A stretch of 64,000 nucleotides of DNA from Armatimonadota bacterium (GCA_025059775.1 JANXCW010000003.1:80284-144283); one strand, 5' to 3'. Positions 15,725 through 44,905 are shown, numbered from the stretch's first letter. Numbers and translations: made by a program. The notes: generated by a model not told the origin, from the sequence alone.

Positions 15725-15728
15725 GTCG

Positions 15729-18699: not shown

Positions 18700-18714
18700 G
18701 CGGCAGCGGTGGGT

Positions 18715-20769: not shown

Positions 20770-20834
20770 GTTGAGCAGGGTTGCGCGGCCCCGTGGCCAA
20801 TTCTCGTCCTGGAGGATGCCCAGGAGGACTTTCC

Positions 20835-23301: not shown

Positions 23302-23376
23302 TTAAGGCGGATCGGGGGCGGTGATAGGGGCGGCCTTGCGCAGGAGGGTCTACAGAATAGGCGCGGAGAGGGCCGG

Positions 23377-24318
23377 ATGAGGTCGTCCACTGCTGCTGTC
23401 CGGCCCTGGGTGAGCTTCCTCACGCGGGGGGGCCGCTGGCTTCGGAGGGAGCGGGTGTTCGCGCCCCTGCTCGTTTTGCCCGCCTTCCTGTACGTAGTCC
23501 TCCTCGTAGGTCTGCCCTTCCTCTATGCGCTCTACCTGAGCCTCACGGACGCCACCACCGGGAACCCCTACGGGAGCTTCATCGGGTTGCGGAACTTCTC
23601 AGAGGTGGTCCAGGACCGGGTCTTCCGCACGGCCCTCAAGAACACCTTCGTCTTCACCCTCTCCGCACAGGGGGCGGTGATCCTGCTCTCCAATGTCCTC
23701 GCCCGGGCCCTGAGTACGGAGTTCCGGGGCAAGGGGTTCGTGCTCTTTCTCCTCCTGCTCCCCTGGGTGGCCCCGGTCTCGCTCTCCACCATCGGCTGGC
23801 TGTGGATCCTCCACGCCCGGTTCAGCGTCCTGGACTGGGTGGCCTGGCAGCTGGGATTGCTGCCCCACGGCCAGAACACCTTCTGGCTTGGGAAACCGAA
23901 TCTGGCTATGTTCTCCGTGGTGATGGTGCACGTGTGGCGGATGCTGCCCTTCGCCACCGTGGTCCTCCTGGCTGGCCTTACCTCCCTGCCCCGGGACCTG
24001 CTGGACCAGGCGGAGGTGGATGGGGCGAGGTTCTGGCGGAAGCTCTTCCAGATCGAGCTCCCCCTGCTGCTTCCCATCATGAGCGTGGCGGTTCTGTTCG
24101 GCACTATCTTCACCTTCACGGACATGGCGGTGGTGTATGTGCTCACCCGGGGCGGGCCCTTTGACACCACCCAGGTGCTCAGCAGCCTCGCCTTCTTCAA
24201 GGGGATCGTGGGCGGAAACCTCAGCGTAGGGGCGGCCATCTCCCTCTTCCTGTTCCCCGTGCTCCTTGTGGCGGCGGTCCTCATCCTGCGAGCCGCCCGG
24301 CGGGCGGAGGTGACGTAG
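23377..24318 (+). CDS. Carbohydrate ABC transporter permease (MalF/UgpA-type)
   Basis: Six-TM permease with the EAA-like motif region (..LDQAEVDGARFWRKLFQIELPLLLP..). Confidence 0.85.
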   Translation: MRSSTAAVRPWVSFLTRGGRWLRRERVFAPLLVLPAFLYVVLLVGLPFLYALYLSLTDATTGNPYGSFIGLRNFSEVVQDRVFRTALKNTFVFTLSAQGAVILLSNVLARALSTEFRGKGFVLFLLLLPWVAPVSLSTIGWLWILHARFSVLDWVAWQLGLLPHGQNTFWLGKPNLAMFSVVMVHVWRMLPFATVVLLAGLTSLPRDLLDQAEVDGARFWRKLFQIELPLLLPIMSVAVLFGTIFTFTDMAVVYVLTRGGPFDTTQVLSSLAFFKGIVGGNLSVGAAISLFLFPVLLVAAVLILRAARRAEVT

Positions 24319-25172
24319 TGCGGAAGCGCGGAAACTGGCAGAGAGCTCTGCGGGTCGGCGGGCGTGCCCTGATCCTGGTGGCCTTCTGCACCTTCACCTC
24401 CTTCCCCTTTGCCTGGATGCTCATCACCGCCTTCAAGCGGAATTCCGACCTCTACAACCCCGTGAACAACCCCTTTTGGTTTAACGAACCTCCCACCCTG
24501 GAGCACCTGGAGTACGTGTTCACCAAGACCCTGTATGCCAACTGGATCGTGAACACCGCCCTGGTGGGGGTGGTGGTGGTGGCCATCACCCTCCTGCTGG
24601 CCCTGCCCGCGGGCTACAGCCTCAGCCGGTTTTTGGGACCGTGGGGCACGCAGCTGGGGATCGGGATGTTCCTCGTGTACCTGGTTCCTCCCACCCTGCT
24701 CTTCATCCCTCTCGCCCGGGTGGTGAGTGAACTGCGGCTGCACAACACCCTCTGGTCCCTCATCCTGATCTACCCCACCATCACCGTGCCCTTCGCCACC
24801 TGGCTGCTGATGGGGTTCTTCAAGTCCATCCCTCCGGAGCTGGAGGAGCAGGCCCTGGTGGACGGGTACAGCCGACTGGGCGCCTTCTGGCGGGTCACCC
24901 TGCCCCTCGCGGTTCCGGGTATCATCGCGGTGGTGATCTTCAGCTTTACCATCTCCGCTCAGGAGTTCGTCTACGCCCTCTCCTTCGTCACCAACGTGGC
25001 CCGCAAGACGGTGAGTGTGGGGGTCCCCGCGGACATGGTCCGCGGGGATATCTTCGACTGGGGGCCGCTCATGGCGAGCGCGTTCCTGGCGAGTGTGCCC
25101 GTGGCTATCCTGTACTACTTCGTGATAGACAAGTTCGTGCGTGGGTTCACCACGGCGGGAGCGATCCGATGA
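24318..25172 (+). CDS. Carbohydrate ABC transporter permease (MalG/UgpE-type)
   Basis: GTG start overlaps the upstream TAG by 1 nt. EQALVDGYSRLGAFWRVTLPLAVPG signature. Confidence 0.85.
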   Translation: MRKRGNWQRALRVGGRALILVAFCTFTSFPFAWMLITAFKRNSDLYNPVNNPFWFNEPPTLEHLEYVFTKTLYANWIVNTALVGVVVVAITLLLALPAGYSLSRFLGPWGTQLGIGMFLVYLVPPTLLFIPLARVVSELRLHNTLWSLILIYPTITVPFATWLLMGFFKSIPPELEEQALVDGYSRLGAFWRVTLPLAVPGIIAVVIFSFTISAQEFVYALSFVTNVARKTVSVGVPADMVRGDIFDWGPLMASAFLASVPVAILYYFVIDKFVRGFTTAGAIR

Positions 25173-26743
25173 GAAGGGGGGTGCACGAGGACATGTCGGA
25201 CGAGAGGCAGGAACTGCGGTGGGTACGGGTCGCGGAGGGGAGGTGGCGCCTCGTGACCCGGAGGGAGTTCTTGCGGCTTGTGGGCGCGGGGCTCACCGCG
25301 GCCAGTTTCGGACCGTTCATCTTTACGGAGAAGACCGCGGCTCAGCCCGTGACCCTGCGCATCCTGCAGTGGAGACACTTCGTTCCACCCTACGACGAAT
25401 GGTTCAACAAGGTGTTCGCGCCCCGGTGGGGGGAGAAGAACGGCGTACGGGTGGTGGTGGAGAACGTGGGACTGGCGGAAATCCCCGCCATTGCCGCGGG
25501 GGAGGCGGCCCGGGTGGCCGCGGGTGCGGATCCGGGGCACGACATGATCCAGTACCTCACCCCGCCCGCCACCCTGGAGCGGCAGGTGGACACGGACGCC
25601 CACCGGGAGGTCATCGAGGAGCTCAAGCGCAAGGTAGGACCGTACATCCCGCTTGCGGAGAAGAGCACCTACAACCCCGTGACCCGGCGGTACTTCGGGA
25701 TCTCAGACAACTTCGTGCCGGACCCCATGCACTACCGGGGGTGGATGTGGCGGGAAGCCTCCGGTAAGGCCCTGGGGCGCTCCACACCGGGACCGGTGAC
25801 GTGGGACGACGTCCGCAAGGTGGGGCGGGAGCTGCGACGCATGGGCCACCCCGTGGGCCTGGGGCTGAGCCAGGAGATCGACACGGGGATGTGGCTGCGC
25901 AGCCTCCTCTACTCCTGGGGCACCGGCGAGCAGGACGAGGGCGGCAACGTGATCCTGGATGTCCCGCCCTACCGACAGCGGACCCTGGACGCCCTGAAGT
26001 TCGTGCGGGATCTCTACAACGAGACCATGTTTGCGGGGGTCTTCGCGTGGACCGCGGCCTCCAACAACGAGGAATTCCTGGCAGGCCGTATCTCCATCGC
26101 CATGAACGCCATCTCCATCACCCGGACCGCCCAGGCCCTGGCCGCCCAGGCCCTCAAGCGGGGAGAGGATCCCAAGACCAGCAAGGCCGTGCTCCTCGCG
26201 CGGGATACCCTGATCACGGAGCGGGCGCCGCAGGGACCGGCAGGAGCCCGCGGGCTGGAGCACGTCATGGGGGTTTACTTCATCTGGAAGAACCGGCCCC
26301 GTCCCGTGCGGGAGGCGGCGAAGAAGCTGCTCATCGACCTCATCCTGAGCTACGATCCCGACGTGGCAGCCCGGGAGGGTTGGGCCCCCGGGAAGTTCCA
26401 GGCTTCCCAGGCCTACGACTACCCCACCTTCGAGAACGCCATCCCCAAGGCCAAGCGGCTCGCATACCTGCGCAACGATCCCGTGAGCCGGGCCGCGGGA
26501 GACCGTCCGGATAAGCTGGTGACCATCGAGACCGCATACGAGTGGGCACACAACGTGGGGTGGCCCGGGCCCTCGAGTGCGGCCATCGACGAGGTGTTCA
26601 ACACGTGGATCCTCAACGTGATGTTCGCCCGGGTGGCCCAGGGGATCGACACGCCCGAGCAGGCCCTGGACGCCGCGGCCCGTCAGATCCGCCGGGTGTT
26701 CCAGAAGTGGCGGGAGCAGGGGCTGGTGGGCGGTCGGCGGTGA
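25169..26743 (+). CDS. ABC transporter extracellular solute-binding protein (family 1) with Tat-type signal
   Basis: ATGA overlap with the permease. TRREFLRLVGAGLTAASF twin-arginine signal. An alternative GTG start at 25253 (M-TRREFL) has a strong GGAGGGGAGGTGG RBS and may be the true start. Confidence 0.8.
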   Translation: MRRGVHEDMSDERQELRWVRVAEGRWRLVTRREFLRLVGAGLTAASFGPFIFTEKTAAQPVTLRILQWRHFVPPYDEWFNKVFAPRWGEKNGVRVVVENVGLAEIPAIAAGEAARVAAGADPGHDMIQYLTPPATLERQVDTDAHREVIEELKRKVGPYIPLAEKSTYNPVTRRYFGISDNFVPDPMHYRGWMWREASGKALGRSTPGPVTWDDVRKVGRELRRMGHPVGLGLSQEIDTGMWLRSLLYSWGTGEQDEGGNVILDVPPYRQRTLDALKFVRDLYNETMFAGVFAWTAASNNEEFLAGRISIAMNAISITRTAQALAAQALKRGEDPKTSKAVLLARDTLITERAPQGPAGARGLEHVMGVYFIWKNRPRPVREAAKKLLIDLILSYDPDVAAREGWAPGKFQASQAYDYPTFENAIPKAKRLAYLRNDPVSRAAGDRPDKLVTIETAYEWAHNVGWPGPSSAAIDEVFNTWILNVMFARVAQGIDTPEQALDAAARQIRRVFQKWREQGLVGGRR

Positions 26744-27567
26744 GTCCGGCGAGCACCGCAGGGGTCAAGCTCCGGGGGGGCGCGCGGCGGAGCCAGGGAA
26801 TCGTTCCCTCCGTCCTTCGGGCCATCCGGATCCTGGAGGCCGTGGGCAGCGCCGCGCACCCCCCGACCCTGGGAGAACTCGCGCGGATCCTGGGAATCCC
26901 CAAGAGCAGCCTACACGATCTCTGCACCACCCTCCTGCAGGAGCGCCTGCTGGAGCGCACGGACGGAGGGGGCTTCCGGATCGGGGTGCGGGTGTTGGAC
27001 TTCTACAGGGCGTACGACGCCGCCACCCACCTGGGCACGGAGTTCCACCGGGTATGCGAGGAGCTGGTTCCCCGACACGAGGAGACCATTGTGCTCTCCG
27101 TGCTGGATGGACGGGAGGTGGTGTACGTGGCCTGCCGGAACGGCACCCAGCCCATCGCGGTGAACTACCGGATCGGCCTGCGCCTTCCGGCCCACACCAC
27201 AGCCACGGGAAAGGCCATTCTGAGCACCCTCCGGGAGGAGGAGGTGCGCGCCCTGTTCTCCGGCCAGCCCCTGGTACGCCCCACCCGGCGCAGCATCGGG
27301 CAGGTGGAGGAACTCCTCGAGGAGCTGCGAACGACCCGGGCCCGGGGATACTCCGTGGACGACGAGGAGACGGTGGAAGGGATGTGCTGCGTGGGAGCTC
27401 CCCTGTGCGTATCCGGAGACGTACGCGCGGGAGTCGCCTTCAGCATGGTGAAGGCCAGAACCCGGCGGGATCGCCTCCAGGATCTCGGCGGGAAAATCCG
27501 ACACCTCGCCACCGTGCTGTCCGAACGGCTGGGAGGACGGGTTCCGGTCTGCCGTCCGCGGGGATAA
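26740..27567 (+). CDS. IclR-family transcriptional regulator
   Basis: GTGA overlap with the binding-protein gene. N-terminal wHTH (SVLRAIRILEAVGSAAHPPTLGELARILGIPKSSLHDLCTTLLQERLL) and C-terminal IclR effector domain. Confidence 0.85.
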   Translation: MSPASTAGVKLRGGARRSQGIVPSVLRAIRILEAVGSAAHPPTLGELARILGIPKSSLHDLCTTLLQERLLERTDGGGFRIGVRVLDFYRAYDAATHLGTEFHRVCEELVPRHEETIVLSVLDGREVVYVACRNGTQPIAVNYRIGLRLPAHTTATGKAILSTLREEEVRALFSGQPLVRPTRRSIGQVEELLEELRTTRARGYSVDDEETVEGMCCVGAPLCVSGDVRAGVAFSMVKARTRRDRLQDLGGKIRHLATVLSERLGGRVPVCRPRG

Positions 27568-27698: not shown

Positions 27699-29159
27699 AT
27701 GCGGGGCGTGGAGGTCCAGGAGGTTCTGAACTGCGTGGGTGGGGTGTGGAAGCGGCCCCAGGGGCAGGAGGTCCTGCCCGTGTACAACCCCGCCACCGGG
27801 GAGGTCATCGCGCGGGTGGTGACGAGCAGCCCGGAGGACGTGGACCGGGCGGCCCTGGCCGCGGCCCGCGCGGGTGCGGAGTGGCGCCGAACTCCGCCCA
27901 CGGAGCGGGTGCAATACCTGTTCCGGTTGAAACACCTGCTGGAGGAGAACCTGGAGGACCTCGCCCGCACCATCACGGAGGAATGCGGGAAAACGTATGC
28001 GGAGGCCGTAGGGGAGCTGCGGCGGGGCATCGAGAACGTGGAGGTGGCCTGCGGGATCCCCAGCCTCATGCAGGGGTACAACAACGAGGACATCGCCCGG
28101 GGTATCGACGAGTACATGTTTCGGCAGCCCGTGGGCGTGGTGGCCGCCATCACCCCGTTCAACTTCCCTGGGATGATCCCCCTGTGGTTTTTGCCGTACG
28201 CCATCGCGTGCGGCAACACGTTTATCGTGAAACCGTCTGAGAAGACGCCGCTGACGATGCAGAAGCTCATGCGCCTGGTGGAGCAGACAGGGCTTCCGCC
28301 GGGCGTGGTGAACGTGGTGAACGGGGCGAAGGAGACGGTAGACGCCCTCCTGGATCACCCGCTGATCCGGGCCATCAGCTTCGTGGGCTCCACCCCCGTG
28401 GCGAAGTATGTGTACGCACGGGCCGCCGCGGGGGGCAAGCGCGCCCAGTGCCAGGGTGGAGCGAAGAACCCCGTGATCGTGCTCCCGGACGCGGATCTGG
28501 AGTGGGTACCCCGGGCCGTGGCCGATTCCGCCTTCGGGTGCGCGGGGCAGCGGTGCCTGGCGAGCTCGCTGGCGGTGGTGGTGGGCGAAGCGCAGGGGCG
28601 GTTTCGGGAGGCCATCGCAGACCTGGCCGCCTCCCGCCGGGTGGGGTACGGGCTGGATCCGGGAGTGGAGATGGGGCCGGTGATCCGGCGGGAGAGCAAG
28701 GAGCGCATCGAGGGACTCATCGGCAAAGGCGCGGAGGAAGGAGCCCGGATCCTGGTGGACGGACGGGGCGCTCGGATCCCTGGATATGAGGGCGGCTTCT
28801 TCGTGCGGCCCACGGTGCTGGAGGACGTCCCGCCGGAAGGTCTAGTTGCCCGCACGGAGATCTTCGGACCGGTGCTGGGCCTGATCTATGTGCGGGACCT
28901 GGACGAGGCCATTCAGCTGGTGAACCGGGGCCAGTACGGGAACATGGCCTGCCTGTTCACCCGCAGCGGGGCCGCGGCCCGGAAGTTCCGCTATGAGGCG
29001 CAGGTGGGCAACATCGGGATCAACGTGGGGGTGGCCCAGCCCATCGCCTTCTACCCCTTCGGGGGCATGAAGGAGAGCTTCTTCGGCGACCTCCACGGCC
29101 AGGGGCGGGACGCGGTGGAGTTCTACACGGAGAAGAAGATCGTGGTGGAGCGGTGGTAG
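27699..29159 (+). CDS. CoA-acylating methylmalonate-semialdehyde dehydrogenase-like aldehyde dehydrogenase
   Basis: GGGAGGA RBS. ALDH catalytic region ([12 protein letters not shown]..., [11 protein letters not shown] with catalytic Cys) and an MmsA-like overall pattern. Confidence 0.85.
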
Positions 29160-29182
29160 TTCCCCGTTGACGGCACCCGAGG

Positions 29183-30046
29183 ATGAAACCGGCGCCGTTT
29201 CGGTACGTACGGCCGCAGACCCGCATGGAGGCCATGGAGGCGCTTGCCCGCTACGGGGAGGACGCCAAGGTGCTGGCGGGGGGGCAGAGTTTGGTGCCTC
29301 TGATGAATCTGCGGCTCGCCCGCCCCAAGGTGTTGGTGGACATCAACCGCGTCGCGGAGCTGGGAACCCTGGAGCGGCGGGATGGAGTGCTGATCCTGGG
29401 AGCCCTCGTCCGGCACCGGCAGGTGGAGCGGGATGTGAGGGTAACGGAAGCCTGTCCCATCCTGAGTCGGGCCGCAGCCCACATCGGGTTTCCCGCCGTC
29501 CGGAACCGCGGGACCGTGGGAGGAAGTCTCGCCCATGCGGATCCCGCGGCAGAACTCGGTTGCGTGCTTCTCGCCACGGGGGCCGTGGTGGTGCTGGAGT
29601 CCACAGACGGCCGACGGGAAGTGCCGATCGAAGATCTGTTCGTGGGTCCCTACACCACCTGCATCCGCCCTGAGGAACTCCTGGTGGAGGTCCGGGTACC
29701 CGTGTTCGGAGAGACCACCCGCTGGGGATTTGCGGAGTTCACCCGCCACGAGGGTGGGTTCGCCCTAGCCCTGGCCGCCTGCGTACTCCACCTGGACGGG
29801 CAGGGCAGGGTGGCTGCTGCCCGGGTGGCGGTGGGCGGTGCAGGACCCGTTCCGGTAAGGCTTCGCGAGGCCGAGCAGGTCCTACAGGGCGCTCCCCTCT
29901 CGGAGGAGCGGGTGGCCGAGGCTGCCTCCTTCGCCTGCGCCGTGGAGGGCTACGACGACGTCCACGCGCCCGCCTGGTACCGCCAGCGGCTGGCAGGCTG
30001 GCTCGTACGCCGGGTGCTTCAACAGGCCGTGGGAGAGGAGATGTAA
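29183..30046 (+). CDS. Molybdopterin dehydrogenase FAD-binding subunit (CoxM/XdhB-like medium subunit)
   Basis: MKPAPFRYVRPQT..VLAGGQSLVPLMNLRLARP...AVRNRGTVGGSLAHADPAAE matches the FAD_binding_5/CO_deh_flav_C family. Confidence 0.85.
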   Translation: MKPAPFRYVRPQTRMEAMEALARYGEDAKVLAGGQSLVPLMNLRLARPKVLVDINRVAELGTLERRDGVLILGALVRHRQVERDVRVTEACPILSRAAAHIGFPAVRNRGTVGGSLAHADPAAELGCVLLATGAVVVLESTDGRREVPIEDLFVGPYTTCIRPEELLVEVRVPVFGETTRWGFAEFTRHEGGFALALAACVLHLDGQGRVAAARVAVGGAGPVPVRLREAEQVLQGAPLSEERVAEAASFACAVEGYDDVHAPAWYRQRLAGWLVRRVLQQAVGEEM

Positions 30047-30540
30047 TGGACCGTATCTCCATCGCCCTGTCGGTCAACGGCAAGCCCTACCAGTTGGCGG
30101 TAGAGCCGCGCCGCCTGTTGGCGGACGTCCTGCGCCGCGATCTGGGGTTCACGGGCGTGCATCTGGGGTGCGAGCACGGGGTGTGCGGCGCGTGCACCGT
30201 GCTCCTGGATGGGGAGGTGGTGCGTTCCTGCCTGATGTTCGCGGTGCAGGCGGACGGATATGAGATCCTTACGGTGGAGGGGCTGAACACCTCCGGGGAA
30301 CTTCACCCCGTCCAGCGGGCGTTCATCGAGGAGTTCGGGTTCCAGTGTGGGTTCTGCACGCCCGGCATGATCCTCTCCGCATACCGCCTGCTGCAGGAGC
30401 ATCCGAATCCCTCGGAGTACGAGATCCGTCGTGCTCTTGCGGGCAACCTGTGCCGCTGCACGGGATACGTGGATATTGTGCGGTCCGTTCAGCGCGCTGC
30501 TGTGCTCCTCACGCAGAGGGAGGCATACCGTGCTCCCTAG
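30046..30540 (+). CDS. (2Fe-2S)-binding small subunit of a molybdenum hydroxylase (CoxS-like)
   Basis: [15 protein letters not shown] (plant-type ferredoxin cluster) and QCGFCTPGM...CRCTGY (second cluster). Start overlaps the upstream TAA by 1 nt. Confidence 0.9.
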
Positions 30541-32887
30541 CGGCCGGTACGTGGGCCAGCGCGTCCCCCGTTGGGAGGACCGTCGGTTCGTGGAGGGCCG
30601 GGGACGGTACCTGGATGACCTCAGTCTTCCGGATCAGGTAGAGGTCGCTTTCGCCCGCAGTCCTTACGCCCATGCGCGCATTCGGCGCATCGACCTACAG
30701 GCCGCCCGGAGCCATCCGGAGGCGATCGGGGTGTATGCGTGGGAGGATCTGCGGGACCTCCTGCGTCCCTACTGGACCATGCCGCGGGGTCCTATCCGGC
30801 AGGCGCGCGTCACACCCCTGGCTAGCGAAAAAGTGCGGTGGGTCGGAGAACCGGTGGCCGTGGTGGTGGCGCGGGATCGGTATGTGGCGGAGGACCTGTG
30901 TGAGCTCGTGACGGTGGAGTACGAGCCGCTTGCCCCGGTGGTAGACGCGCTGGAGGCGATGAAGCCCGACAGCCCCCGGCTGTACGAGGAGTGGCCGGAC
31001 AACGTGGTCTCCCACCAGACCTTCCAGGCGGGGAATCCCGAAGCAGAGCTCAGGGGCTGTGCCGTAGTGGTCCGGAAGCGCTTCCGCAGCAATCGGGTCA
31101 CCGCGGTGCCCCTGGAGGGCCGGGGAGTTCTGGCTCGCTGGGACCCGCGGGAGGAAACCCTCACGGTGTGGATGGGGCACCAGGATGTGCACCTCGCCCG
31201 GGCAGTGCTCTCCGAGATCCTGGGCTTGCCCCTGAGCCGGATCCGCGTGGTCAGCCCGGACGTGGGGGGAGCCTTCGGAATCAAGTTGCCCATCTATCCG
31301 GAGGAGATGGTGGTGTGCGCCCTCTCAAGGCTTTTGGGGCGGCCCGTGAAGTGGGTGCAGGATCGACGGGAGAGCCTGCTGGGCGACACGCACGCGCGGG
31401 AAGCCGTGGTGGATGTGGAGGCGGGCTTCGACGCCGCGGGGAAGCTCCGGGCCATGCGGATCCACGTGATCAGCGATGCGGGCGCCTACGCGGTGGCGGG
31501 GCGGGGTCCCATCATCGAGGGCAGCATGCTGGCCCGGGAGCTCCCGGGACCGTACGATCTGCGCCACTACGCCTACACCCTGGACGTGGTGATGACCAAT
31601 AAGGCACCCGTGGCCGTGTACCGGGGCGTGGCCATCCCCGTGAGTACCTTTGTCATGGAACGGGTGATGGACCTCGCCGCGGACGCCCTCCAGATGGACC
31701 CCGCGGAGATCCGGCGCCGGAACCTCATCCGCACGTTCCCCTACGCGACGGTCACCGGGCACGTCTACGACGCGGGTCAGTACCTGGAGGGCCTGGAGAA
31801 GCTGCTGGAACTCGTGGACTACGGAAGGTGGAGGGCGGAGCAGGCGCGGCTGCGGGAGCAGGGGCGCTACCTGGGCGTGGGGATCTGCTGTCTTGTGGAC
31901 GCCACCGCCCGGGGAGGCGGGTTCTACGGTCGGCTGGGGCTGAAGGCGGCCACCCAGGAGGGCTGCATCCTCCGGGTGGATCCCTCCGGCGGGATCATCG
32001 CGGCTTTGGGGACCACCACGCAAGGGCAGGGGCTGCACACGGCGCTCGCGCAGCTCATCGCGGACACCCTCGGGGTTCCCCTGGAGCGGGTCACCGTGGT
32101 GATGGGGGATACCGCCACCACCCCATATGGCGGAGGAGCCTGGGCCAGCCGGGGGGCCGTGGCGGGTGGAGCCGTGGCCCTGCTGGCGGCCCGGAGGTTG
32201 CGGGAGAAAATCCAGCACATCGCGGCCCACCTGCTGGAAGCCGCGCCGGAGGACATCGAACTGGCGGAGGGACGTGCCTTTGTGCGGGGTACCACGGCCC
32301 GCAGTCTGTCGCTGGAGGAGATCGCCCACACCGCCTACTTCGTGGCCGTGGACCTGCCCGCTAGAATGGAGCCAGGCCTGGAGGTGATGGTCCACTGGGA
32401 GCCGGAGATCCCCGCCACCTTTGCATATACGGCGCAGGCCATGGTGGTGGAGGTGCAGCCCGAGACGGGGGCCGTGAACATTTTGAAATACGTCGTGGTG
32501 GAGGATTGCGGCCCCATCATCAACCCGGGGCTCGTGGACGGGCAGCTGCGGGGCGGAATCCTGCAGGGCCTGGGCCAGGCCCTCTACGAGGACCTCGTGT
32601 ACGACGCCCAGGGGCAGCTGCTCACCTCCACCCTCCTGGACTACCTCCTTCCCGGGTTCTGTGAGGCGCCGGAAGTGGAGATCCACCACCTCTCGACCCC
32701 GTCCACGCGGACCGTGGGGGGGCTGCGGGGGATGGCGGAGAGTGGGACCGCTGGTGCGCCCGCGGTGCTGGCGAATGCGGTGGCGGATGCCCTCAAGCCG
32801 TTCGGAGCGGAAGTCACCGCCCTTCCGCTCAGTCCCGCGCGGGTGGCGGAGCTGATACGGGGTCAGAAACCGACGAAAGGAGGGTGA
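30530..32887 (+). CDS. Molybdopterin-binding large subunit of a xanthine-dehydrogenase-family hydroxylase (not a canonical CO dehydrogenase)
   Basis: GTG 30530 after GAGGGAGG. Ald_Xan_dh_C/C2 architecture. The active-site loop reads AVYRGVAIP, not the CODH form I AYRCSFR or form II AYRGAGR. Confidence 0.8.
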   Translation: MLPSGRYVGQRVPRWEDRRFVEGRGRYLDDLSLPDQVEVAFARSPYAHARIRRIDLQAARSHPEAIGVYAWEDLRDLLRPYWTMPRGPIRQARVTPLASEKVRWVGEPVAVVVARDRYVAEDLCELVTVEYEPLAPVVDALEAMKPDSPRLYEEWPDNVVSHQTFQAGNPEAELRGCAVVVRKRFRSNRVTAVPLEGRGVLARWDPREETLTVWMGHQDVHLARAVLSEILGLPLSRIRVVSPDVGGAFGIKLPIYPEEMVVCALSRLLGRPVKWVQDRRESLLGDTHAREAVVDVEAGFDAAGKLRAMRIHVISDAGAYAVAGRGPIIEGSMLARELPGPYDLRHYAYTLDVVMTNKAPVAVYRGVAIPVSTFVMERVMDLAADALQMDPAEIRRRNLIRTFPYATVTGHVYDAGQYLEGLEKLLELVDYGRWRAEQARLREQGRYLGVGICCLVDATARGGGFYGRLGLKAATQEGCILRVDPSGGIIAALGTTTQGQGLHTALAQLIADTLGVPLERVTVVMGDTATTPYGGGAWASRGAVAGGAVALLAARRLREKIQHIAAHLLEAAPEDIELAEGRAFVRGTTARSLSLEEIAHTAYFVAVDLPARMEPGLEVMVHWEPEIPATFAYTAQAMVVEVQPETGAVNILKYVVVEDCGPIINPGLVDGQLRGGILQGLGQALYEDLVYDAQGQLLTSTLLDYLLPGFCEAPEVEIHHLSTPSTRTVGGLRGMAESGTAGAPAVLANAVADALKPFGAEVTALPLSPARVAELIRGQKPTKGG

Positions 32888-32892
32888 GGCGG

Positions 32893-34119
32893 ATGAAAAT
32901 CACACGGCGGGAGTTCCTGAGAGGTGCGCTGGCAGGAGGGGCAGCCCTGGCTGTCCCGGAGGCTCTGCGCTCCATCGCCCATGCGGCACCCCGGGAGCCC
33001 ATCCGCATTGGGTTCCCCGCCCCGCTCACGGGAGCCTTTGCGGACGAGGCGAACTACATGGTACAGGGAGCCACCCTGGCGGTGGAGGAGTTCAACCGGG
33101 CCGGGGGTGTGCTGGGCCGGCAGGTGGAGCTCCTCGTGCGGGACGATAGGCTCAGCCCAGATGAGGGAGCCCGGCGTGCGCTGGAGCTCATCGAGCGGGA
33201 GCGGGTGCACTTCCTGGCGGGCGTGCTCTCCGCCGCGGTGCAGCTCGCGGTGAACGAGGTGGCCAAGCGCCACCGCCGGATCTTCGTCTCCACCAGCCAG
33301 TCGGACAAGATCGTCATGCCTCCGGATTTCAGCCCGTGGACCTTCCACGAGGCCCTCACACCCTGGATGACCTCCACCGCCCTGGCCCGGTATGTCCTGC
33401 GGGAGGGCCGCGGAAAGCGGGTGTACATCCTCTATGCAGACTACGCCTACGGACAGGAGCACACCGCCGCCTGGCGCCGCGTGATCGGGGAGGTGGGAGC
33501 GACCCTGGTGGGGGTGGATCCACACCCCCTCGGTACCACGGACTACTCCGCATACCTGCCGAAGATCGTGGCAGCCCGTCCTGACGTGCTGGTGCTGAAC
33601 AACTTCGGAAGGGACATCGTGAATTCCGCCAAGCAGGCGGTGGAACTGGGCCTCAAGCAACGGGCGCAGATCGCGGTTCCCATCATCCCTACCGCCGCAG
33701 CCCTGGAGGCGGGTCCGGAGGTGCTCGGAGACGTGGTGTGTGCCTCAAGCTACTGGTGGGAGGTCCAGGAGCGGATTCCCAAGGCGAAGGAGTTCAACAC
33801 GAAGTTCAGCCGGCGCTTCAACCGGGTGCCCTCGGACTACGCGGCCTACGCCTACAGCGGCGTGCGGGAGCTACTGGAGGCCGTGCAGCGGACCGGAACC
33901 ACGGACAGCGACCGGGTGGCAAAGGCCATGGAGGGACGCCGCTACGCCCACTACAAGGACACCCAGTACTGGCGCGCGTGCGACCACCAGTCCGTCCAGA
34001 CCATCTTCCTCCTGCGGGGACGGGAGCGGCCGCGGGGGCCTTATGGGCTCTTCGACATCATCGCCACTGTGGAGGGGGAGCGCGTGATCCCCAGCTGCGA
34101 GGCCCTGGGACACCGCTAG
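32893..34119 (+). CDS. Branched-chain-amino-acid-type (Liv-family) ABC transporter substrate-binding protein, Tat signal
   Basis: MKITRREFLRGALAGGAALAVPEA signal, then the periplasmic binding fold of the LivJ/LivK family (..IRIGFPAPLTGAFADEANYMVQGATLAVEEFN..). Confidence 0.85.
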   Translation: MKITRREFLRGALAGGAALAVPEALRSIAHAAPREPIRIGFPAPLTGAFADEANYMVQGATLAVEEFNRAGGVLGRQVELLVRDDRLSPDEGARRALELIERERVHFLAGVLSAAVQLAVNEVAKRHRRIFVSTSQSDKIVMPPDFSPWTFHEALTPWMTSTALARYVLREGRGKRVYILYADYAYGQEHTAAWRRVIGEVGATLVGVDPHPLGTTDYSAYLPKIVAARPDVLVLNNFGRDIVNSAKQAVELGLKQRAQIAVPIIPTAAALEAGPEVLGDVVCASSYWWEVQERIPKAKEFNTKFSRRFNRVPSDYAAYAYSGVRELLEAVQRTGTTDSDRVAKAMEGRRYAHYKDTQYWRACDHQSVQTIFLLRGRERPRGPYGLFDIIATVEGERVIPSCEALGHR

Positions 34120-34141
34120 GGGAGGAGACGAGGCGGTCCCC

Positions 34142-35005
34142 GTGAGCGGGCAAGCCCTGTTGCTGCAGCTCGTGACGGGCGTGGTGGTAGGTGCCATCTG
34201 GGTGATCGTGGCCATTGGGCTTTCCCTTATTTTCGGGATCCTGCGCATTGTGAACTTCGCCCACGGCGCCTTCTACATGCTCGGAGCATACCTGGCCGCC
34301 TTCGCCGTCGGCTGGACCGGACACTTCTGGATTGCTCTCCTCGTGGCTCCCTTGAGCATGGCTGCCTTCGGCGTGCTGGTGGAGCGGGGACTGATCGGGC
34401 GGCTCTACGGCCGGGGCCTTGTTTACAGCGTGCTGGCCACCTACGCGGTCAGCCTGGTCGTGATCGAGGGGGTCAAGATCCTGTGGGGAACCGTGGGCCC
34501 TCAGTTCCGGGTGCCCGCGGAACTGGCGGGCATGGTGAACCTGGGGTTCAGTCTCTTCCCCAAATACCGGTTGTTCGTGCTCCTGGCTACAGCCCTCACG
34601 GTGTTGGGCGTGTGGTGGTGGCTGCACCGCACGCCCATGGGGCTCTTTGTCCGGGCCGCGAGCCAGGACCCTCTGATGACGCAGGCTCTGGGGGTGGACA
34701 TCGCCCGGGTGCTGGCCGGCGCCTTCGGCGCAGGGGTCGCCCTGGCGGGGCTAGGAGGGACTCTGGCGGGGCCCCTGCGGGGCGTCTTCCCGGAAATGGG
34801 GCTCGATATCCTCGTGGAGTCCTTCGTGGTCGTGGTCATCGGAGGGATGGGGAGCCTGCTGGGCGCGGTGGTGGCAGGGCTGCTGGTGGGTGTGGTTCAA
34901 AGCTTCACCTTCCTCCTGGCCCCGGTGTTCGCGCACGTGGTCCTCTTCCTCCTCATGATCGCCACCCTGCTGGTTCGGCCCCAGGGTCTGTTCGGCACGG
35001 AGTGA
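34142..35005 (+). CDS. Branched-chain amino acid ABC transporter permease (LivH-type)
   Basis: GTG 34142. Polytopic LivH-like permease (..IVNFAHGAFYMLGAYLA..). Confidence 0.85.
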   Translation: MSGQALLLQLVTGVVVGAIWVIVAIGLSLIFGILRIVNFAHGAFYMLGAYLAAFAVGWTGHFWIALLVAPLSMAAFGVLVERGLIGRLYGRGLVYSVLATYAVSLVVIEGVKILWGTVGPQFRVPAELAGMVNLGFSLFPKYRLFVLLATALTVLGVWWWLHRTPMGLFVRAASQDPLMTQALGVDIARVLAGAFGAGVALAGLGGTLAGPLRGVFPEMGLDILVESFVVVVIGGMGSLLGAVVAGLLVGVVQSFTFLLAPVFAHVVLFLLMIATLLVRPQGLFGTE

Positions 35006-35014
35006 GGGGTAGGC

Positions 35015-36031
35015 ATGGAGCTGAAGGTCCCGTCTGAATTGCTCATGACCCGCCGGCCCCTGCAGGCCCTGGCCTTTCCCGCGGCCCTGGTCGCCTTCCT
35101 CGTCCTCCTTCCCGTGGGGCTCCCCTACGAGGCCCTGGCAGCCCAGATCCTCGTATACGCCCTGTTCAGCCTGGGTTACAACCTGCTCTTTGGGTACACG
35201 GGGCTACTGTCCTTCGGGCACGCGGCCTTCTTCGGACTGGGAGGCTACACCGCGGGGCTGCTGGCCCGGAGGATCACCGCGAACGTGCTGTGGACCCTCC
35301 CCGCCGCCGTCGTCGTCGGTGCGGTGGCGGGAGCGGTGGTGGGGTTTTTCTGTCTCCGCCGGCGGGGGGACTACTTCTCCCTCATGACCCTGGCCTTCGG
35401 GCAGCTTCTGTACTTCATCGCGCACCAGTGGCGGGAGCTGACGGGGGGTGATGACGGTCTGCGTGGGATCCCCACGGCCTACCTGCAACTGGGACCGTGG
35501 ACGTTCCCGCTGGAGAGCTCCCGGGACGTCTACGTCCTCATCGCCACGCTGACCTTCGCGGGGTTCCTAGGCTTCCGGAGGTTGCTCCGCTCCCCCTTTG
35601 GCAGCGCCCTGCAGGCCATCCGGGAGAACGAGCTCCGGGCGGAGGCCGTGGGCTACGACACCTTTCGTCTGAAGCTGTGGGCCTTTGTGCTCTCCGCGGC
35701 CCTGAGCAGCGCCGCGGGGGCCCTGAACGTGTACCTCCTGAAGTTCGTGGGCCTCAACAGCCTGCACTGGACCACTTCCGGTTACGCGGTTCTGATCACC
35801 ATCCTGGGAGGAGCGGGGACGCTGCTGGGACCCCTCGTGGGAGCCCTAGCCTTCGTGGGGCTGCAGGACGTCCTCAGCGCCATTCCCGCCATCGTGGACC
35901 GATGGCCCTTTTTTGTGGGGCTGCTGTTCATTGTGTGCGTCCTGGTGTTCCCGCACGGGATCTGGGGGACTGTGGAGCGGCTGCAGGCCCGGCTGCGGTG
36001 GCGTGCGGTTCCAGGAGGGGTGGAGGGATGA
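35015..36031 (+). CDS. Branched-chain amino acid ABC transporter permease (LivM-type)
   Basis: LivM-like permease (..FGYTGLLSFGHAAFFGLGGYTAGLL..). Confidence 0.85.
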   Translation: MELKVPSELLMTRRPLQALAFPAALVAFLVLLPVGLPYEALAAQILVYALFSLGYNLLFGYTGLLSFGHAAFFGLGGYTAGLLARRITANVLWTLPAAVVVGAVAGAVVGFFCLRRRGDYFSLMTLAFGQLLYFIAHQWRELTGGDDGLRGIPTAYLQLGPWTFPLESSRDVYVLIATLTFAGFLGFRRLLRSPFGSALQAIRENELRAEAVGYDTFRLKLWAFVLSAALSSAAGALNVYLLKFVGLNSLHWTTSGYAVLITILGGAGTLLGPLVGALAFVGLQDVLSAIPAIVDRWPFFVGLLFIVCVLVFPHGIWGTVERLQARLRWRAVPGGVEG

Positions 36032-36777
36032 CGGCACCGGTGCTCGCAACGGAGCGGCTGACCCGGCGGTTCGGATCCCTGGCCGCGGTGGACGAGGTGA
36101 GCCTAGCCTTGTGGCCCGGGGAGATCCGGGGGATCATCGGACCGAACGGGGCCGGCAAGAGTACCCTCCTCCGCTTGATGGCGGGAGAGATCCGGCCGAG
36201 CGCGGGGAGGATCCTCTACCGGGGCCAGGACATAACGGGCCGGTCCATGTACCAGCTGGCGCGAAGCGGTATTGTGAAGTCCTTTCAGATCACGCAGGTG
36301 TTCCCGAACCTCACCTGCCTGGAGAACGTCCGGGTGGTGGTCCAGGGACCCGGTCGGGCGTGGAACTTCTGGCAGCGGGTGGATCTGGATCGGACCACCC
36401 TGGAGCGGGCGGAAGCCCTGCTGGCCCGGGTGGGGCTGTACGGGAAGCGGGACCTCCCCGCCTATGCGCTGTCCCACGGGGAACAGCGGCACCTGGAGAT
36501 CGCCATGGCCCTCGCCATGGATCCGGTGGTTCTGCTCCTGGACGAGCCGACCGCAGGGATGAGCGCGGAGGAGATCCAGAGCACCATGAAGCTCCTGCAG
36601 GACGTGGCACGGGAGCGGACCATCGTCATCGTGGAGCACAAGATGCCCGTCATCATGAACCTCTGTCAACGGATCACCGTGCTGCACTTCGGGCGCATCC
36701 TGGCGGAGGGGACTCCGGAGGAGATCCAGGCGTCCGAGGAGGTTCAGGCGGTGTACCTGGGGAGGGCCCGGGGATGA
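36028..36777 (+). CDS. ABC transporter ATP-binding protein (LivG-type)
   Basis: ATGA overlap. Walker A GPNGAGKSTLL, signature LSHGEQRHLEIAMAL, Walker B LLLDEPTAGM. Confidence 0.9.
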   Translation: MTAPVLATERLTRRFGSLAAVDEVSLALWPGEIRGIIGPNGAGKSTLLRLMAGEIRPSAGRILYRGQDITGRSMYQLARSGIVKSFQITQVFPNLTCLENVRVVVQGPGRAWNFWQRVDLDRTTLERAEALLARVGLYGKRDLPAYALSHGEQRHLEIAMALAMDPVVLLLDEPTAGMSAEEIQSTMKLLQDVARERTIVIVEHKMPVIMNLCQRITVLHFGRILAEGTPEEIQASEEVQAVYLGRARG

Positions 36778-37502
36778 GCCGGGAGGCACTGCGGCTGGAG
36801 GACGTTCACGCGTACTACGGGAAGAGCCATGTGCTCCAGGGCGTCTCCCTGGAGGTGGCGGAGGGGGAGTTCGTGGCCCTAGTCGGGCGCAACGGAGCGG
36901 GCAAGTCCACCATCCTCAAGAGCATCATGGGCATCGTGCCACCACGCACGGGCCGGGTGCTGCTGGGAGGGCAGGAGATCACCGGGTTCGCCCCACACGA
37001 GGTCTCCCGACGCGGGATCGCGTGGGTACCCGAAGAGCGCCGGGTGCTCCCGGAGCTCACCGTGGAGGAGAACCTGTGGCTCGCCCTGCACGCCGCGGGC
37101 ATAAGGGGGAGGGAGGCCAGCGCGCGGCTGGAGGATGCCTTCTCCCTGTTCCCCAGACTTCGGGAGCGGCTCCATCAGAAAGGCCGGACCCTCTCCGGCG
37201 GGGAGCAGCAGATGCTCGCCATCGCCCGGGCCCTGGTGGTGCGTCCCAAGGTCATGCTGGTGGACGAGCCCACCCAAGGGTTGATGCCCCGTCTGGTGAG
37301 CGCCCTGGCGGATGTCCTGCGGGAGATCCACGCCCGCGGGGTGACGGTGGTGCTGGTGGAGCAAATGGTCACGGTGGCCATGGAGCTGGCGCAACGGCTG
37401 TACATCGTGGATCAGGGAAGGGTGCGACTGTGTGCCACTCCCCAGGACATCCAGCGGGATCCACAGCTCGTGCAGTCCCTGCTGGGGGTCTCGGGGGTCT
37501 AG
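36774..37502 (+). CDS. ABC transporter ATP-binding protein (LivF-type)
   Basis: ATGA overlap. GRNGAGKSTIL, LSGGEQQMLAIARAL, MLVDEPTQGL. Confidence 0.9.
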   Translation: MSREALRLEDVHAYYGKSHVLQGVSLEVAEGEFVALVGRNGAGKSTILKSIMGIVPPRTGRVLLGGQEITGFAPHEVSRRGIAWVPEERRVLPELTVEENLWLALHAAGIRGREASARLEDAFSLFPRLRERLHQKGRTLSGGEQQMLAIARALVVRPKVMLVDEPTQGLMPRLVSALADVLREIHARGVTVVLVEQMVTVAMELAQRLYIVDQGRVRLCATPQDIQRDPQLVQSLLGVSGV

Positions 37503-37518
37503 GAACAGGAGGGAGCGC

Positions 37519-38274
37519 ATGCACCAGGAATACCGGGATCACGTGGTGGTGGAGCTCTTCGGAAAACGCATTCACGTGCTGGACCTTTCCCGGGAGATCG
37601 GGCCACACATCCCTGTCTATCCCGGCCACATGCGGGTGGCCACGTGGTGGCACCTGACCCACGAGGACGTCCGGAGGCTGCGTCTGCCGGCGGATTCCCC
37701 CTTCGGAGGATACGGGGTGTTCGGGATCGCCATGTGCGACCACATATCCACGCACGTGGACGCGGTCTACCACTTCAACCCCCAACGCCCGGAGAAGACC
37801 GTGGACCGAATCCCCCTGTCGCAGCTCATCACACCCGGAGTGTGGATCGATGTGAGCTGGGTGCCTCCCCGTCAGCACATCCGGCTTGCGGACGTGCAGC
37901 GAGCTCTGAGGGAAGCGCAGGTGGAGCTCCGCCCGGGCGTCACCCTCCTGTACTACACGGGAGCCGCACGGTACTGGGAAGATCCCTATCGGTTCCTGAC
38001 AGAGTACCCGGGCCTCGACGAGGAGGCCAGCCGCTGGATCCTGGATCAGGGAGTGGTCAACGTGTGCACGGACGCTCCCAGCACGGACAACCCCGCGGAC
38101 CTGAGCTATCCCAACCACAGGGTGCACGGGGAGCGGGAGGTGATCCACACGGAGATCGTGCACAACATCGAGCGCATCCCCCGACACGAGGGGTTCTACG
38201 TCATGTTCCTGCCCCTACGGTTCGTGGGGCTGTCGGGCTCCCCGGTGCGCGCTTTGGCCCTCTGGGAAGAGTAA
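37519..38274 (+). CDS. Cyclase-family protein (kynurenine formamidase / arylformamidase-like metal hydrolase)
   Basis: ATG 37519 after AGGAGGGAG. Cyclase-family His-rich motif region (..MCDHISTHVDAVYHF..) and later conserved HTE. Confidence 0.75.
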   Translation: MHQEYRDHVVVELFGKRIHVLDLSREIGPHIPVYPGHMRVATWWHLTHEDVRRLRLPADSPFGGYGVFGIAMCDHISTHVDAVYHFNPQRPEKTVDRIPLSQLITPGVWIDVSWVPPRQHIRLADVQRALREAQVELRPGVTLLYYTGAARYWEDPYRFLTEYPGLDEEASRWILDQGVVNVCTDAPSTDNPADLSYPNHRVHGEREVIHTEIVHNIERIPRHEGFYVMFLPLRFVGLSGSPVRALALWEE

Positions 38275-38298
38275 AATCAACGAAAGGAGGGGGTGGAG

Positions 38299-38481
38299 AT
38301 GCCTGTTATCCGCGTGAGCTCGTTCCCGCAGTCCAAGGAGACCCGCAAGGCCCTGGCGGAGGAGATCACGGAGGTAGTGCACCGCCACACCCAGGTTCCC
38401 AGGGAGTACATCTGGGTGATCTTCGATCCCGTCCCTCAGGAGAACTGGGCGGTGGCGGGTCGCCTGATCTCGGAGCAGTAA
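38299..38481 (+). CDS. 4-oxalocrotonate tautomerase-family protein (Pro-1 tautomerase)
   Basis: ATG 38299 gives an N-terminal M-PVIRVSSFP with the catalytic Pro at position 2. AAAGGAGGGGG RBS 6-8 nt upstream. ~60 aa, the family's typical size. Confidence 0.75.
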   Translation: MPVIRVSSFPQSKETRKALAEEITEVVHRHTQVPREYIWVIFDPVPQENWAVAGRLISEQ

Positions 38482-38499
38482 GCGGACTGCGCCGCGAAG

Positions 38500-39273
38500 G
38501 TGGATCCGAAAGGGACCGCGCGGTTCTCCCTGGAGGGCAAACGGGCCCTGGTGACGGGGGCGAGCCGGGGACTCGGGGAGGCCATCGCGGTGGGCCTCGC
38601 GGAGGCGGGAGCCCACGTCGCGGTAGCGGGGCGGAGTGGGGCGGACCTGGAACGGGTCGCCCGGCGGATCCAGGAGGTGGGACGACGAGCGGTGGTGGTG
38701 CAGGCGGACGTCACCAGGGTCCAGGACGTCCAGCGTATGGTGGCGGAGGCGGAGGAGCGACTGGGTCCTCTGCACATCCTGGTGAACAACGCGGGGATCA
38801 ACCTCCCGCGGCCCGCCCTGGAGGTCACGGAGGAGGAGTGGGACCTGGTCCTGGATACGAACCTCAAGGGCCTGTTCTTCGCGGCGCAGGCCGCGGGCCG
38901 GCGGATGGTGGAACGGCGCTACGGCCGCATCGTGAACATGGCCTCGCAGATGGGGTTCGTGGGATTCTACTTCCGGGCTGCGTACTGCGCCAGCAAGGCG
39001 GGGGTCGTGAACCTCACGCGGGTGCTCGCCGTAGAGTGGGCGCCGTATGGTGTGACGGTGAACGCAGTGGCGCCGACCTTTGTGGAGACCCCCATGACCC
39101 GGGGCATGCTAGAGGATCCCTGGTTCCGGGAGGAGGTGCTGCGCCGGATTCCCCTGGGCCGTTTGGCGGACCCTCAGGACGTGGTGGCCGCGGTCCTGTA
39201 TCTCGCCTCGGATGCCGCCGCCATGATTACGGGGCACACGCTCCTGGTGGATGGAGGCTGGGTCGCTTGGTGA
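38500..39273 (+). CDS. Short-chain dehydrogenase/reductase (SDR)
   Basis: KRALVTGASRGLGEAIAVGLAEAGAHV (TGxxxGxG), NNAG, catalytic YCASKAG. GTG 38500 start has a weak RBS. Confidence 0.8.
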   Translation: MDPKGTARFSLEGKRALVTGASRGLGEAIAVGLAEAGAHVAVAGRSGADLERVARRIQEVGRRAVVVQADVTRVQDVQRMVAEAEERLGPLHILVNNAGINLPRPALEVTEEEWDLVLDTNLKGLFFAAQAAGRRMVERRYGRIVNMASQMGFVGFYFRAAYCASKAGVVNLTRVLAVEWAPYGVTVNAVAPTFVETPMTRGMLEDPWFREEVLRRIPLGRLADPQDVVAAVLYLASDAAAMITGHTLLVDGGWVAW

Positions 39274-39283
39274 GGAGGAGGCC

Positions 39284-40561: not shown

Positions 40562-40588
40562 AGGCTGCATCGGGAAGGAGGGAGAGCG

Positions 40589-41029
40589 GTGGACATCCGG
40601 TCGCTGCAACACTGCAGCCTCGTGGTGCGGGACCTGGAACGCTCCCGGTGGTTCTACGGAACCGTCCTGGGGCTCGAGGAGATCCCGCGGCCCTCCACCT
40701 TCACCTTCCGGGGGGCATGGTTCCGGCGAGGGGGTGCGGAAGTACACCTCATCCTGGCGGAGGACACCACGGCTCCGCCGGGCTTTCCGGACGCGGGGAG
40801 CGCGAAGCGCACGGGTCTTGCCACCCATTTCGCCTTCGAGGTGGCGGACCTTGAGGCGGCCCGCGCGGAGCTCAGCCGGGCCGGGATCCCCATCGTGGGA
40901 GGTCCCATGCCGCGGGGCGATGGGGTGATGCAGATGTACGTGGAGGACCCGGACGGCTACCTAATTGAGCTCTTCCAGCGTACCCCCGAAGGGGTGGGAG
41001 GCCCGGAGCGGGGGGCGGTACGAGGATAG
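40589..41029 (+). CDS. VOC-family (glyoxalase/bleomycin-resistance/dioxygenase fold) protein, single domain
   Basis: GTG 40589 after GGGAAGGAGGGAGAG. LQHCSLVVRDLERSRWFYGTVLGLEEI... matches the VOC fold. Confidence 0.7.
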   Translation: MDIRSLQHCSLVVRDLERSRWFYGTVLGLEEIPRPSTFTFRGAWFRRGGAEVHLILAEDTTAPPGFPDAGSAKRTGLATHFAFEVADLEAARAELSRAGIPIVGGPMPRGDGVMQMYVEDPDGYLIELFQRTPEGVGGPERGAVRG

Positions 41030-41034
41030 GGGCC

Positions 41035-43094: not shown

Positions 43095-43136
43095 GAGCAT
43101 CGGAGCGTAACGAGGACGTCGACCTAGCGTGGTAGG

Positions 43137-44878: not shown

Positions 44879-44905
44879 CGAACAAACCCATAGGGGGTGA
44901 GGGGG

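Follow-up and report, generated by a model that had tools for sequence, protein, structure and literature searches.

A CoxMSL-like molybdenum hydroxylase without carbon monoxide dehydrogenase motifs, and its putative catabolic gene array

When three genes stand in the order of an aerobic carbon monoxide (CO) dehydrogenase and yet lack the motifs of that enzyme, what do they encode, and on what would their product act? The question is raised by positions 29183-32887 of a 64,000-nucleotide stretch of an Armatimonadota bacterium (GCA_025059775.1, JANXCW010000003.1:80284-144283), hereafter the window, in which consecutive M, S and L genes resemble CoxMSL; many CoxL-like genes are still counted as markers of CO oxidation in metagenome surveys. 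Every test we applied assigns the predicted product to the molybdenum hydroxylases of the xanthine-oxidase family and speaks against a CO dehydrogenase. As to its substrate, gene context leads us to put at about even the chance that L hydroxylates an imported N-heterocycle, probably of the pyridine type, before the ring is opened.

The three genes and the active site of L

All three genes lie on the plus strand. The M gene (29183-30046) runs from an ATG at 29183 to a TAA ending at 30046 and encodes a flavoprotein of 287 amino acids with a binding fold for flavin adenine dinucleotide (FAD; Pfam FAD_binding_5, 4e-49, and CO_deh_flav_C, 2e-19). The S gene (30046-30540; 164 amino acids) starts at an ATG at 30046, one base being common to it and the M stop (TAATG), and matches Fer2 and Fer2_2 (Pfam, 5e-33); its translation contains both four-cysteine motifs, CEHGVCGAC...C and CGFC...CRC, and all eight cysteines of two [2Fe-2S] clusters are there. 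The molybdopterin-binding, catalytic L subunit (30530-32887; 785 amino acids) starts at a GTG at 30530, overlaps S by 11 nucleotides (nt; the S stop, TAG, is at 30538-30540) and closes with a TGA ending at 32887, and it comprises Ald_Xan_dh_C (PF01315, 7e-24), MoCoBD_1 (PF02738, 5e-74) and MoCoBD_2 (PF20256, 4e-84). An initial annotation, made from the sequence alone, had described the order M-S-L with overlaps of 1 and 11 nt; we found the reading frames just so, and an independent gene call on the public contig that encodes an identical L likewise gives these three genes, arranged alike. With Pfam E-values from 1e-10 to 4e-84 across the domains of the three subunits, these are, to judge by the matches, not chance reading frames. 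The domains expected of a three-subunit molybdenum hydroxylase are all present (in L the hammerhead and two molybdenum-cofactor-binding domains, in S the two [2Fe-2S] sites, and in M the FAD_binding_5 fold), and M, S and L together are thus predicted to form a complete enzyme of this kind within the xanthine-oxidase family.

The active site of L points the same way. Residues 358-374 (KAPVAVYRGVAIPVSTF) contain the loop AVYRGVAIP (A362-P370, 31613-31639, plus strand) that had been read there initially; it has no cysteine and aligns without gaps with the loops AYRGVGF of quinoline 2-oxidoreductase (Qor; QorMSL of Pseudomonas putida 86, PDB 1t3q) and AFRGVGY of NdhL from the nicotine plasmid. The corresponding loop of form I CoxL, judged from solved structures aligned with L, has two additional residues and contains the copper-binding cysteine. 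The residues contacting molybdenum, which had been singled out for inspection, are conserved: Gln218 (codon 31181-31183, plus strand) corresponds to Gln224 of Qor and Glu737, the catalytic glutamate (codon 32738-32740, plus strand), to Glu743, and both also align with their CoxL equivalents. The roles of the molybdenum-site glutamine and the catalytic glutamate are established by structural work. The GGxFG, GQG and GDT segments are likewise retained in L, and the clade to which it belongs has fixed variants of its own, namely GHQD for (S/T)TQxP, GGAFG for GGGFG, YRGVAIP for YRGVG and GQGL for GQGH, where Qor has ATQM, GGGFG, YRGVGF and GQGH. As far as alignment can tell, L is a functional-looking hydroxylase with a distinct pocket of its own.

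Comparison with carbon monoxide dehydrogenase and other characterized enzymes

The initial annotation had supposed that automated pipelines usually label such genes as CO dehydrogenase. This is so for JGI alone, where relatives of L are named 'carbon-monoxide dehydrogenase large subunit'; NCBI, on the other hand, names the exact protein (100% identical, from an 'Armatimonadetes bacterium' bin) 'xanthine dehydrogenase family protein molybdopterin-binding subunit'. Because that generic name is already in place, our interpretation is not surprising, and an uncharacterized CoxL-like paralogue that reference annotation names only generically is a common situation.

The hallmarks of form I CoxL are the signature AYxCSFR, the gene order M-S-L and flanking coxDEFGHI, and those of form II are AYRGAGR together with the order S-L-M (PMC7645674). 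A search of all six frames of the whole window turned up neither AYxCSFR nor AYRGAGR, and re-translation yields no AYRCSFR, in keeping with the initial claim that both motifs are missing. Form II was rejected on three counts, since AYRGAGR is absent, the order is M-S-L rather than S-L-M, and the form II sequence in our tree sits away from the clade of the window. The M-S-L order that L shares with form I is not specific to CO dehydrogenase, being found also in ndhABC of the nicotine plasmid and in a Thermomicrobium paralogue.

Similarity scores of L, taken by themselves, rank CO dehydrogenase first, and it is here that the possibility of an atypical aerobic CO dehydrogenase, oxidizing CO without the copper-binding cysteine, has to be weighed. 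The best PDB match of L is CoxL of M. smegmatis (549 bits), followed by Qor (520), 4zoh (359) and 1rm6 (267), and the best NCBIfam match is also a CO dehydrogenase model (NF040766, 640 bits). That score is, however, far under the cut-off of 950, as is the 590 bits obtained with TIGR02416 under its cut-off of 991. In fact, L falls under every curated NCBIfam cut-off: the alpha model of glyceraldehyde dehydrogenase gives 632 bits against 790, and the equivalogs beyond these top three are missed by a wider margin, among them XdhA (391 against 780) and PucD (286 against 784). M is likewise below the cut-off for every NCBIfam equivalog. Because Qor and NdhL are not among the enzymes modeled in NCBIfam, its ranking of matches is biased.

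We also placed L in a neighbor-joining tree of 127 large subunits with 50 bootstraps. All 50 bootstraps unite L with its 18 closest relatives in one clade, and all 50 likewise unite the three form I sequences, which group with a form II sequence (L060); L falls outside this form I/II group in 50/50 bootstraps, and the group itself lies outside the radiation that holds the clade of the window, Qor and NdhL. In none of the 50 bootstraps was the clade sister to form I. The phylogeny thus does not put L among true CoxL proteins, as had been surmised, and places it, on present sequences, in the same broad radiation as Qor and NdhL. Identities do not separate the candidates, being 37-39% to form I CoxL and no higher there than to Qor (37.5%) or NdhL (37.9%), with KdhL at 33.5%; L appears about equally distant from all characterized enzymes. 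Qor is like the enzyme of the window in having three subunits, in aligning over its full length, in loop length and YRGV core, and in the conserved catalytic glutamine and glutamate, but it differs in its tree sub-branch and its gene context. NdhABC shares the M-S-L order, and NdhL shows 39% identity to L in BLASTP, or 38% when taken from the multiple alignment, yet it too occupies another sub-branch despite the equal loop length.

Accessory genes complete the comparison. In tblastn searches with XdhC, CoxD, CoxE and CoxG queries from two other loci, no homologue was found in the 64 kb apart from a weak MoxR match (27% identity, 56459-57094) lying 23 kb away, and no coxF or mocA gene was detected in the window; the initial statement that no xdhC/coxDEF-type genes are adjacent accordingly holds. 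The MoxR match belongs to a MoxR (AAA_3)-DUF58-VWA operon (56270-60177) whose likeness to CoxD/CoxE is at superfamily level only and which is not a cox accessory set. Form I CoxMSL (8uem, 1ffu, 1n5w) resembles the three genes in subunit architecture, gene order, top PDB score and molybdenum-contacting glutamine and glutamate, and differs from them in the signature, the cysteine and longer loop, coxDEFGHI, a score that passes the curated cut-off, and membership of the CoxL clade. The missing motifs, the curated scores, the tree and the lack of accessory genes rule out a CO dehydrogenase identity, and we consider even an atypical enzyme of that activity very improbable. The proposal of a xanthine-dehydrogenase-family hydroxylase is borne out by the same four lines of evidence.

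Gene linkage and the probable substrate

The three genes are part of an array of ~15 kb (27699-43094) in which all genes are on the plus strand with gaps of at most 28 nt, and which may be co-transcribed. Directly downstream of L is an importer of the ATP-binding cassette (ABC) type. Its solute-binding protein, of Liv/HAAT type with a Tat signal (32893-34119; Peripla_BP_6, 2e-82, and TAT_signal), begins at an ATG 5 nt past the L stop, a start read off the sequence that agrees with the 408-amino-acid call on the identical contig; BPD_transp_2 permeases (34142-35005 and 35015-36031) and two ABC ATPases (36028-36777 and 36774-37502) follow, assigned from gene calls and Pfam on the identical contig and orthologous loci. 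Next comes a Cyclase-family (PF04199) metal-dependent hydrolase (37519-38274; Pfam Cyclase, 2e-31), presumed to open a ring, whose closest solved structure is isatin hydrolase (42.6 bits) and whose metal motif, H75/H79/D81/H85, is invariant in its subfamily. Toward the end of the array an FAD monooxygenase (41035-42264) is a homologue of 2,6-dihydroxypyridine 3-hydroxylase (DHPH) over its full length (PDB 2vou, 244 bits, E 2e-71), with 37% identity to DhpH of the nicotine plasmid and 412 bits to PRK07236 (cut-off 333).

The linkage of these genes is conserved. Relatives of L form 19 clusters at identities of at least 56%, after which identity drops to at most 49%; the sole close species-level genome is that of Candidatus Fervidifonticultor secundus (L 79% identical), of a genus within the hot-spring phylum CSP1-3, 'Sysuimicrobiota', and the host lineage has been described as facultatively anaerobic (PMC11604079). 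S and L, the Liv-type ABC genes and the cyclase are retained together in the window and in loci L002, L004, L006, L090 and L091 (L 71-90% identical). Binding protein, cyclase and L are respectively 97%, 95% and 89% identical in L002, 85%, 87% and 78% in L004, and 67%, 75% and 71% in L006, the conservation of the first two being about equal to or above that of L. The gene upstream of the set varies among loci (an aldehyde dehydrogenase, Peptidase_M24 or another binding protein), and M is missing beside S-L in L006, L007, L090 and L092. Where M is present, its conservation is below that of L (80% against 89%, and 64% against 78%), and the flavoprotein may be shared or replaceable. In L090 (L 80% identical) an S-L-ABC-cyclase-SDR-VOC series, SDR being a short-chain dehydrogenase/reductase, is followed by a second complete M-S-L (13067-16267, with an L of 809 amino acids), and the only M gene of that operon lies in this second set; because it resembles multi-step heterocycle pathways, we count the second hydroxylase in favor of a heterocyclic substrate.

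Two more distant systems bear on the same point. The closest paralogue from a cultured organism, that of Thermomicrobium roseum (45%; megaplasmid NC_011961.1, 744164-770512, locus L093), has M-S-L followed by an ABC transporter, PxpABC-like 5-oxoprolinase (lactam-opening) genes and a biotin carboxyl carrier protein, with a biotin carboxylase (accC) and phosphoenolpyruvate-utilizing enzymes upstream of M. The closest parallel to the array as a whole is the pAO1-type nicotine plasmid, where kdhL-Dabb-cyclase-dhpH form one operon, so that a PF04199 cyclase and a monooxygenase of the 2,6-dihydroxypyridine-hydroxylase type also share a catabolic cluster with the large subunit of a molybdenum hydroxylase. 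The PF04199 protein of that plasmid is induced by nicotine, has been proposed to open 2,3,6-trihydroxypyridine hydrolytically, and is a close homologue of HpoH, which acts on the same intermediate in the 2-hydroxypyridine pathway of Rhodococcus (PMC6214936). The parallel is not complete: KdhL is ~33% identical to L, the plasmid cluster has components that the window lacks (SRPBCC/CoxG-like, MoxR, VWA, XdhC, an omega-amidase and molybdenum cofactor genes), and the window has an ABC importer, an SDR, a histidinol-dehydrogenase-like (HisD-like) enzyme, VOC proteins and a tautomerase that the plasmid cluster does not. It is the full-length DHPH homologue, the nicotine-plasmid parallel, the conserved linkage to the ABC importer and cyclase, and the lactam-opening neighbors in T. 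roseum, taken together, that lead us to an N-heterocycle.

One could thus envision a pathway in which the substrate is taken up by the importer encoded directly downstream and the molybdenum-pterin center of L, with Glu737 as the catalytic base, hydroxylates an electron-poor C-H with a water-derived hydroxyl; the position attacked would most likely adjoin the ring nitrogen in a compound of the pyridine or pyridone type. Electrons would leave L by way of the two [2Fe-2S] clusters in S, reach the FAD bound by M and go from there to an acceptor, and the hydroxylated product, a lactam or pyridone, would be handed to other enzymes of the array. Under this scheme, the order of whose steps we infer, the DHPH-like flavoenzyme would hydroxylate further, the cyclase-family metallohydrolase would open the ring hydrolytically (dioxygenolytic opening being an alternative), and the VOC proteins, tautomerase, SDR, HisD-like dehydrogenase and semialdehyde dehydrogenase would process what results.

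Several observations weigh against an N-heterocyclic substrate. L092 (75% identity) and L007 (62%) no longer have the linkage; characterized enzymes are at most 39% identical to L, and no close relative of L is characterized; the cyclase is just 29% identical to that of the nicotine plasmid; the DHPH-like gene was seen in the closest relatives only, where genes for a tautomerase, an SDR, a HisD-like enzyme and VOC proteins also come after the cyclase; and no amidase is encoded within the array. The distribution of the cyclase raises a further difficulty. Its subfamily, which appears to have no characterized member, is found at 58-70% identity across Chloroflexota, Bacillota, Actinomycetota, Dormibacterota and many soil metagenomes (loci L097-L173) and appears to mark a widespread catabolic module. 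Our own open-reading-frame calling recovered the cyclase in only 32/45 of these loci, on high-GC contigs, and was replaced for the neighborhoods by tblastn co-occurrence, counted in 41 loci of at least 6 kb, and by targeted Pfam scans. Neighbors in the 41 were the orthologous SDR (25), Liv-type ATPases (15-16), the DHPH-like gene (12) and the HisD-like gene (8). A small VOC protein is also among the usual companions of the cyclase, and away from the window its neighbors further include at times Amidohydro_2 (decarboxylase-type), enoyl-CoA hydratase, a 3-hydroxyisobutyrate-dehydrogenase-like protein and LysR- or PucR-type regulators. A molybdenum large subunit was present in only 2 of the 41, both close relatives of the window, and one further short locus had a distant M-S-L. 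Because the molybdenum enzyme is so rare at cyclase loci, it seems to have been added within one lineage, and what it acts on may differ from the substrate of the module; enzyme and importer together look like a lineage-specific front end to it. Literature searches found no cluster combining histidinol-dehydrogenase-like, cyclase-family and dihydroxypyridine components, and no relevant system linking isatin hydrolase with xanthine-dehydrogenase-family clusters.

The ring handled by the module might contain no nitrogen at all. Resorcinol resembles 2,6-dihydroxypyridine in chemical terms. The cyclase family includes a C-C hydrolase for dihydrophloroglucinol, a carbocyclic compound, which is paired with an SDR (PMC10470551), and the downstream module could serve a carbocyclic ring in the same manner. 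L might itself be a reductive dehydroxylase of a phenolic or aryl-CoA compound feeding a phenol-type pathway, as such enzymes do exist in the xanthine-oxidase family (4-hydroxybenzoyl-CoA reductase and the urolithin dehydroxylases of the gut), 1rm6 is among the matches of L, and a facultatively anaerobic host would accommodate it. The 4-hydroxybenzoyl-CoA reductase models nevertheless score only 383 bits for alpha (cut-off ~994-995) and 90 for beta (cut-off 405), 1rm6 itself gives 267 bits, M has 287 amino acids where the reductase beta model has 321 positions and is matched in two separate stretches only, and the array contains no CoA ligase or ferredoxin gene; we judge a dehydroxylase to be quite improbable.

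The oxidative substrates known for molybdenum enzymes of this type are heterocycles and aldehydes, and the initial annotation had named both. An aldehyde oxidoreductase would convert an aldehyde to an acid in the manner of the archaeal molybdenum-dependent glyceraldehyde oxidoreductase (NF041018-NF041020; 4zoh), perhaps one supplied by aldolase genes upstream. That enzyme, too, has three subunits, and its models are the best NCBIfam matches for M and S (glyceraldehyde dehydrogenase beta and gamma, 241.5 and 231.1 bits) and, for L, second only to the CO dehydrogenase model. Moreover, genes for a hydroxypyruvate isomerase, an HpcH-type aldolase and a tartronate-semialdehyde reductase lie 6-8 kb upstream. 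However, all three subunits are under the cut-offs (350, 290 and, for L, 790) within a collection whose lack of Qor and NdhL models biases the ranking, the solved Sulfolobus structure is matched far less well than Qor or CoxL, the context in the window is not glycolytic, and the neighboring gene already provides an NAD-dependent aldehyde dehydrogenase. The sugar-acid genes are, besides, absent in L004, L006, L090 and L091, where the ABC/cyclase linkage stays. Of the two initial suggestions, then, context favors the heterocycle over the aldehyde, and an aldehyde substrate seems to us unlikely.

If an N-heterocycle is indeed the substrate, the locus would represent heterocycle catabolism in an uncultured thermophilic lineage and would also flag the widespread cyclase/SDR/HisD-like/hydroxylase module. 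What is new here is the conserved operon and a link to dihydroxypyridine-type chemistry, from which we infer a testable substrate class. A more specific proposal is tentative, and we hold it to be rather doubtful: that the hydroxylase clade of CSP1-3/'Armatimonadota', joined with its importer to an uncharacterized module, constitutes a thermophilic pathway for an N-heterocycle, pyridine-type or other, with an O2-independent start, a substrate and intermediates not previously described, and no local XdhC-type chaperone. The locus also adds a further case in which M-S-L order and high similarity to CoxL accompany what is predicted not to be a CO dehydrogenase. Neither point overturns current understanding.

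Remaining genes of the array and surrounding sequence

The first gene of the array (27699-29159) encodes a CoA-acylating (methyl)malonate-semialdehyde dehydrogenase-type aldehyde dehydrogenase (Aldedh, 1.6e-140; TIGR01722, 557 bits, cut-off 448.5) that ends 24 nt upstream of M; its position is not conserved, Peptidase_M24 being found there in L004. Between the cyclase and the FAD monooxygenase lie four genes. A 4-oxalocrotonate-tautomerase-family protein of ~60 amino acids that starts Met-Pro (38299-38481; DmpI model, 55.8 bits, cut-off 70) is matched in L002 and L091 by a Tautomerase Pfam gene in the equivalent place, and an SDR (38500-39273; adh_short_C2, 4e-69) is of a type found beside the cyclase in many lineages. 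The histidinol-dehydrogenase-like NAD oxidoreductase (39251-40561; Histidinol_dh, 6e-145), whose true start may be slightly downstream, passes the hisD model TIGR00069 (477 bits, cut-off 244) and would thus be annotated as histidinol dehydrogenase; its position is retained in L002, L004 and L091, and this conserved place in a catabolic operon suggests a paralogue for another alcohol or aldehyde substrate. A small VOC/glyoxalase-fold protein follows (40562-41029, open-frame coordinates with an approximate start), 91% identical to L002 by tblastn; its syntenic counterpart in L002 and in L091 is a 146-amino-acid Glyoxalase gene. The last gene (42261-43094) encodes a two-domain VOC protein resembling extradiol dioxygenases (Glyoxalase, 8e-17), with HpaD and catechol 2,3-dioxygenase models far under cut-off.

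Upstream, 131 nt before the array, is an IclR-family gene, also on the plus strand (26782-27567, start approximate), a possible regulator; its matches to the NCBIfam models BhcR and PcaR/PcaU are weak and all under cut-off, and HTH_IclR and IclR_C are found at the syntenic position in L002. It closes a module (20781-27567) that encodes a hydroxypyruvate-isomerase-like protein, an HpcH/GarL-type aldolase, a tartronate-semialdehyde reductase (above cut-off) and a CUT1-type sugar ABC transporter whose 524-amino-acid binding protein has no Pfam match. A link of M-S-L with these sugar-acid genes was considered and set aside, as it is not conserved past the closest relative. Downstream of the array (43128-51809), a flavin reductase is paired with a luciferase-like monooxygenase as a two-component system; after them come genes for a peptide/nickel-type ABC transporter, an alpha/beta hydrolase and a Zn-dependent alcohol dehydrogenase, and all of these may add to the catabolic functions of the island.

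An Rfam scan of the window returned two tRNAs only, and nothing in or near the operon. The two tRNA genes are adjacent (18626-18787; 64.7 and 60 bits) and lie between gltX and a DAO-family FAD oxidoreductase. Finally, prfB (10755-11879), the gene of release factor 2, has at 10831-10837 the classic signal for programmed +1 frameshifting, CTT TGA C, preceded by a Shine-Dalgarno-like AGGGGG, with the PCRF and RF-1 domains running on in the +1 frame.

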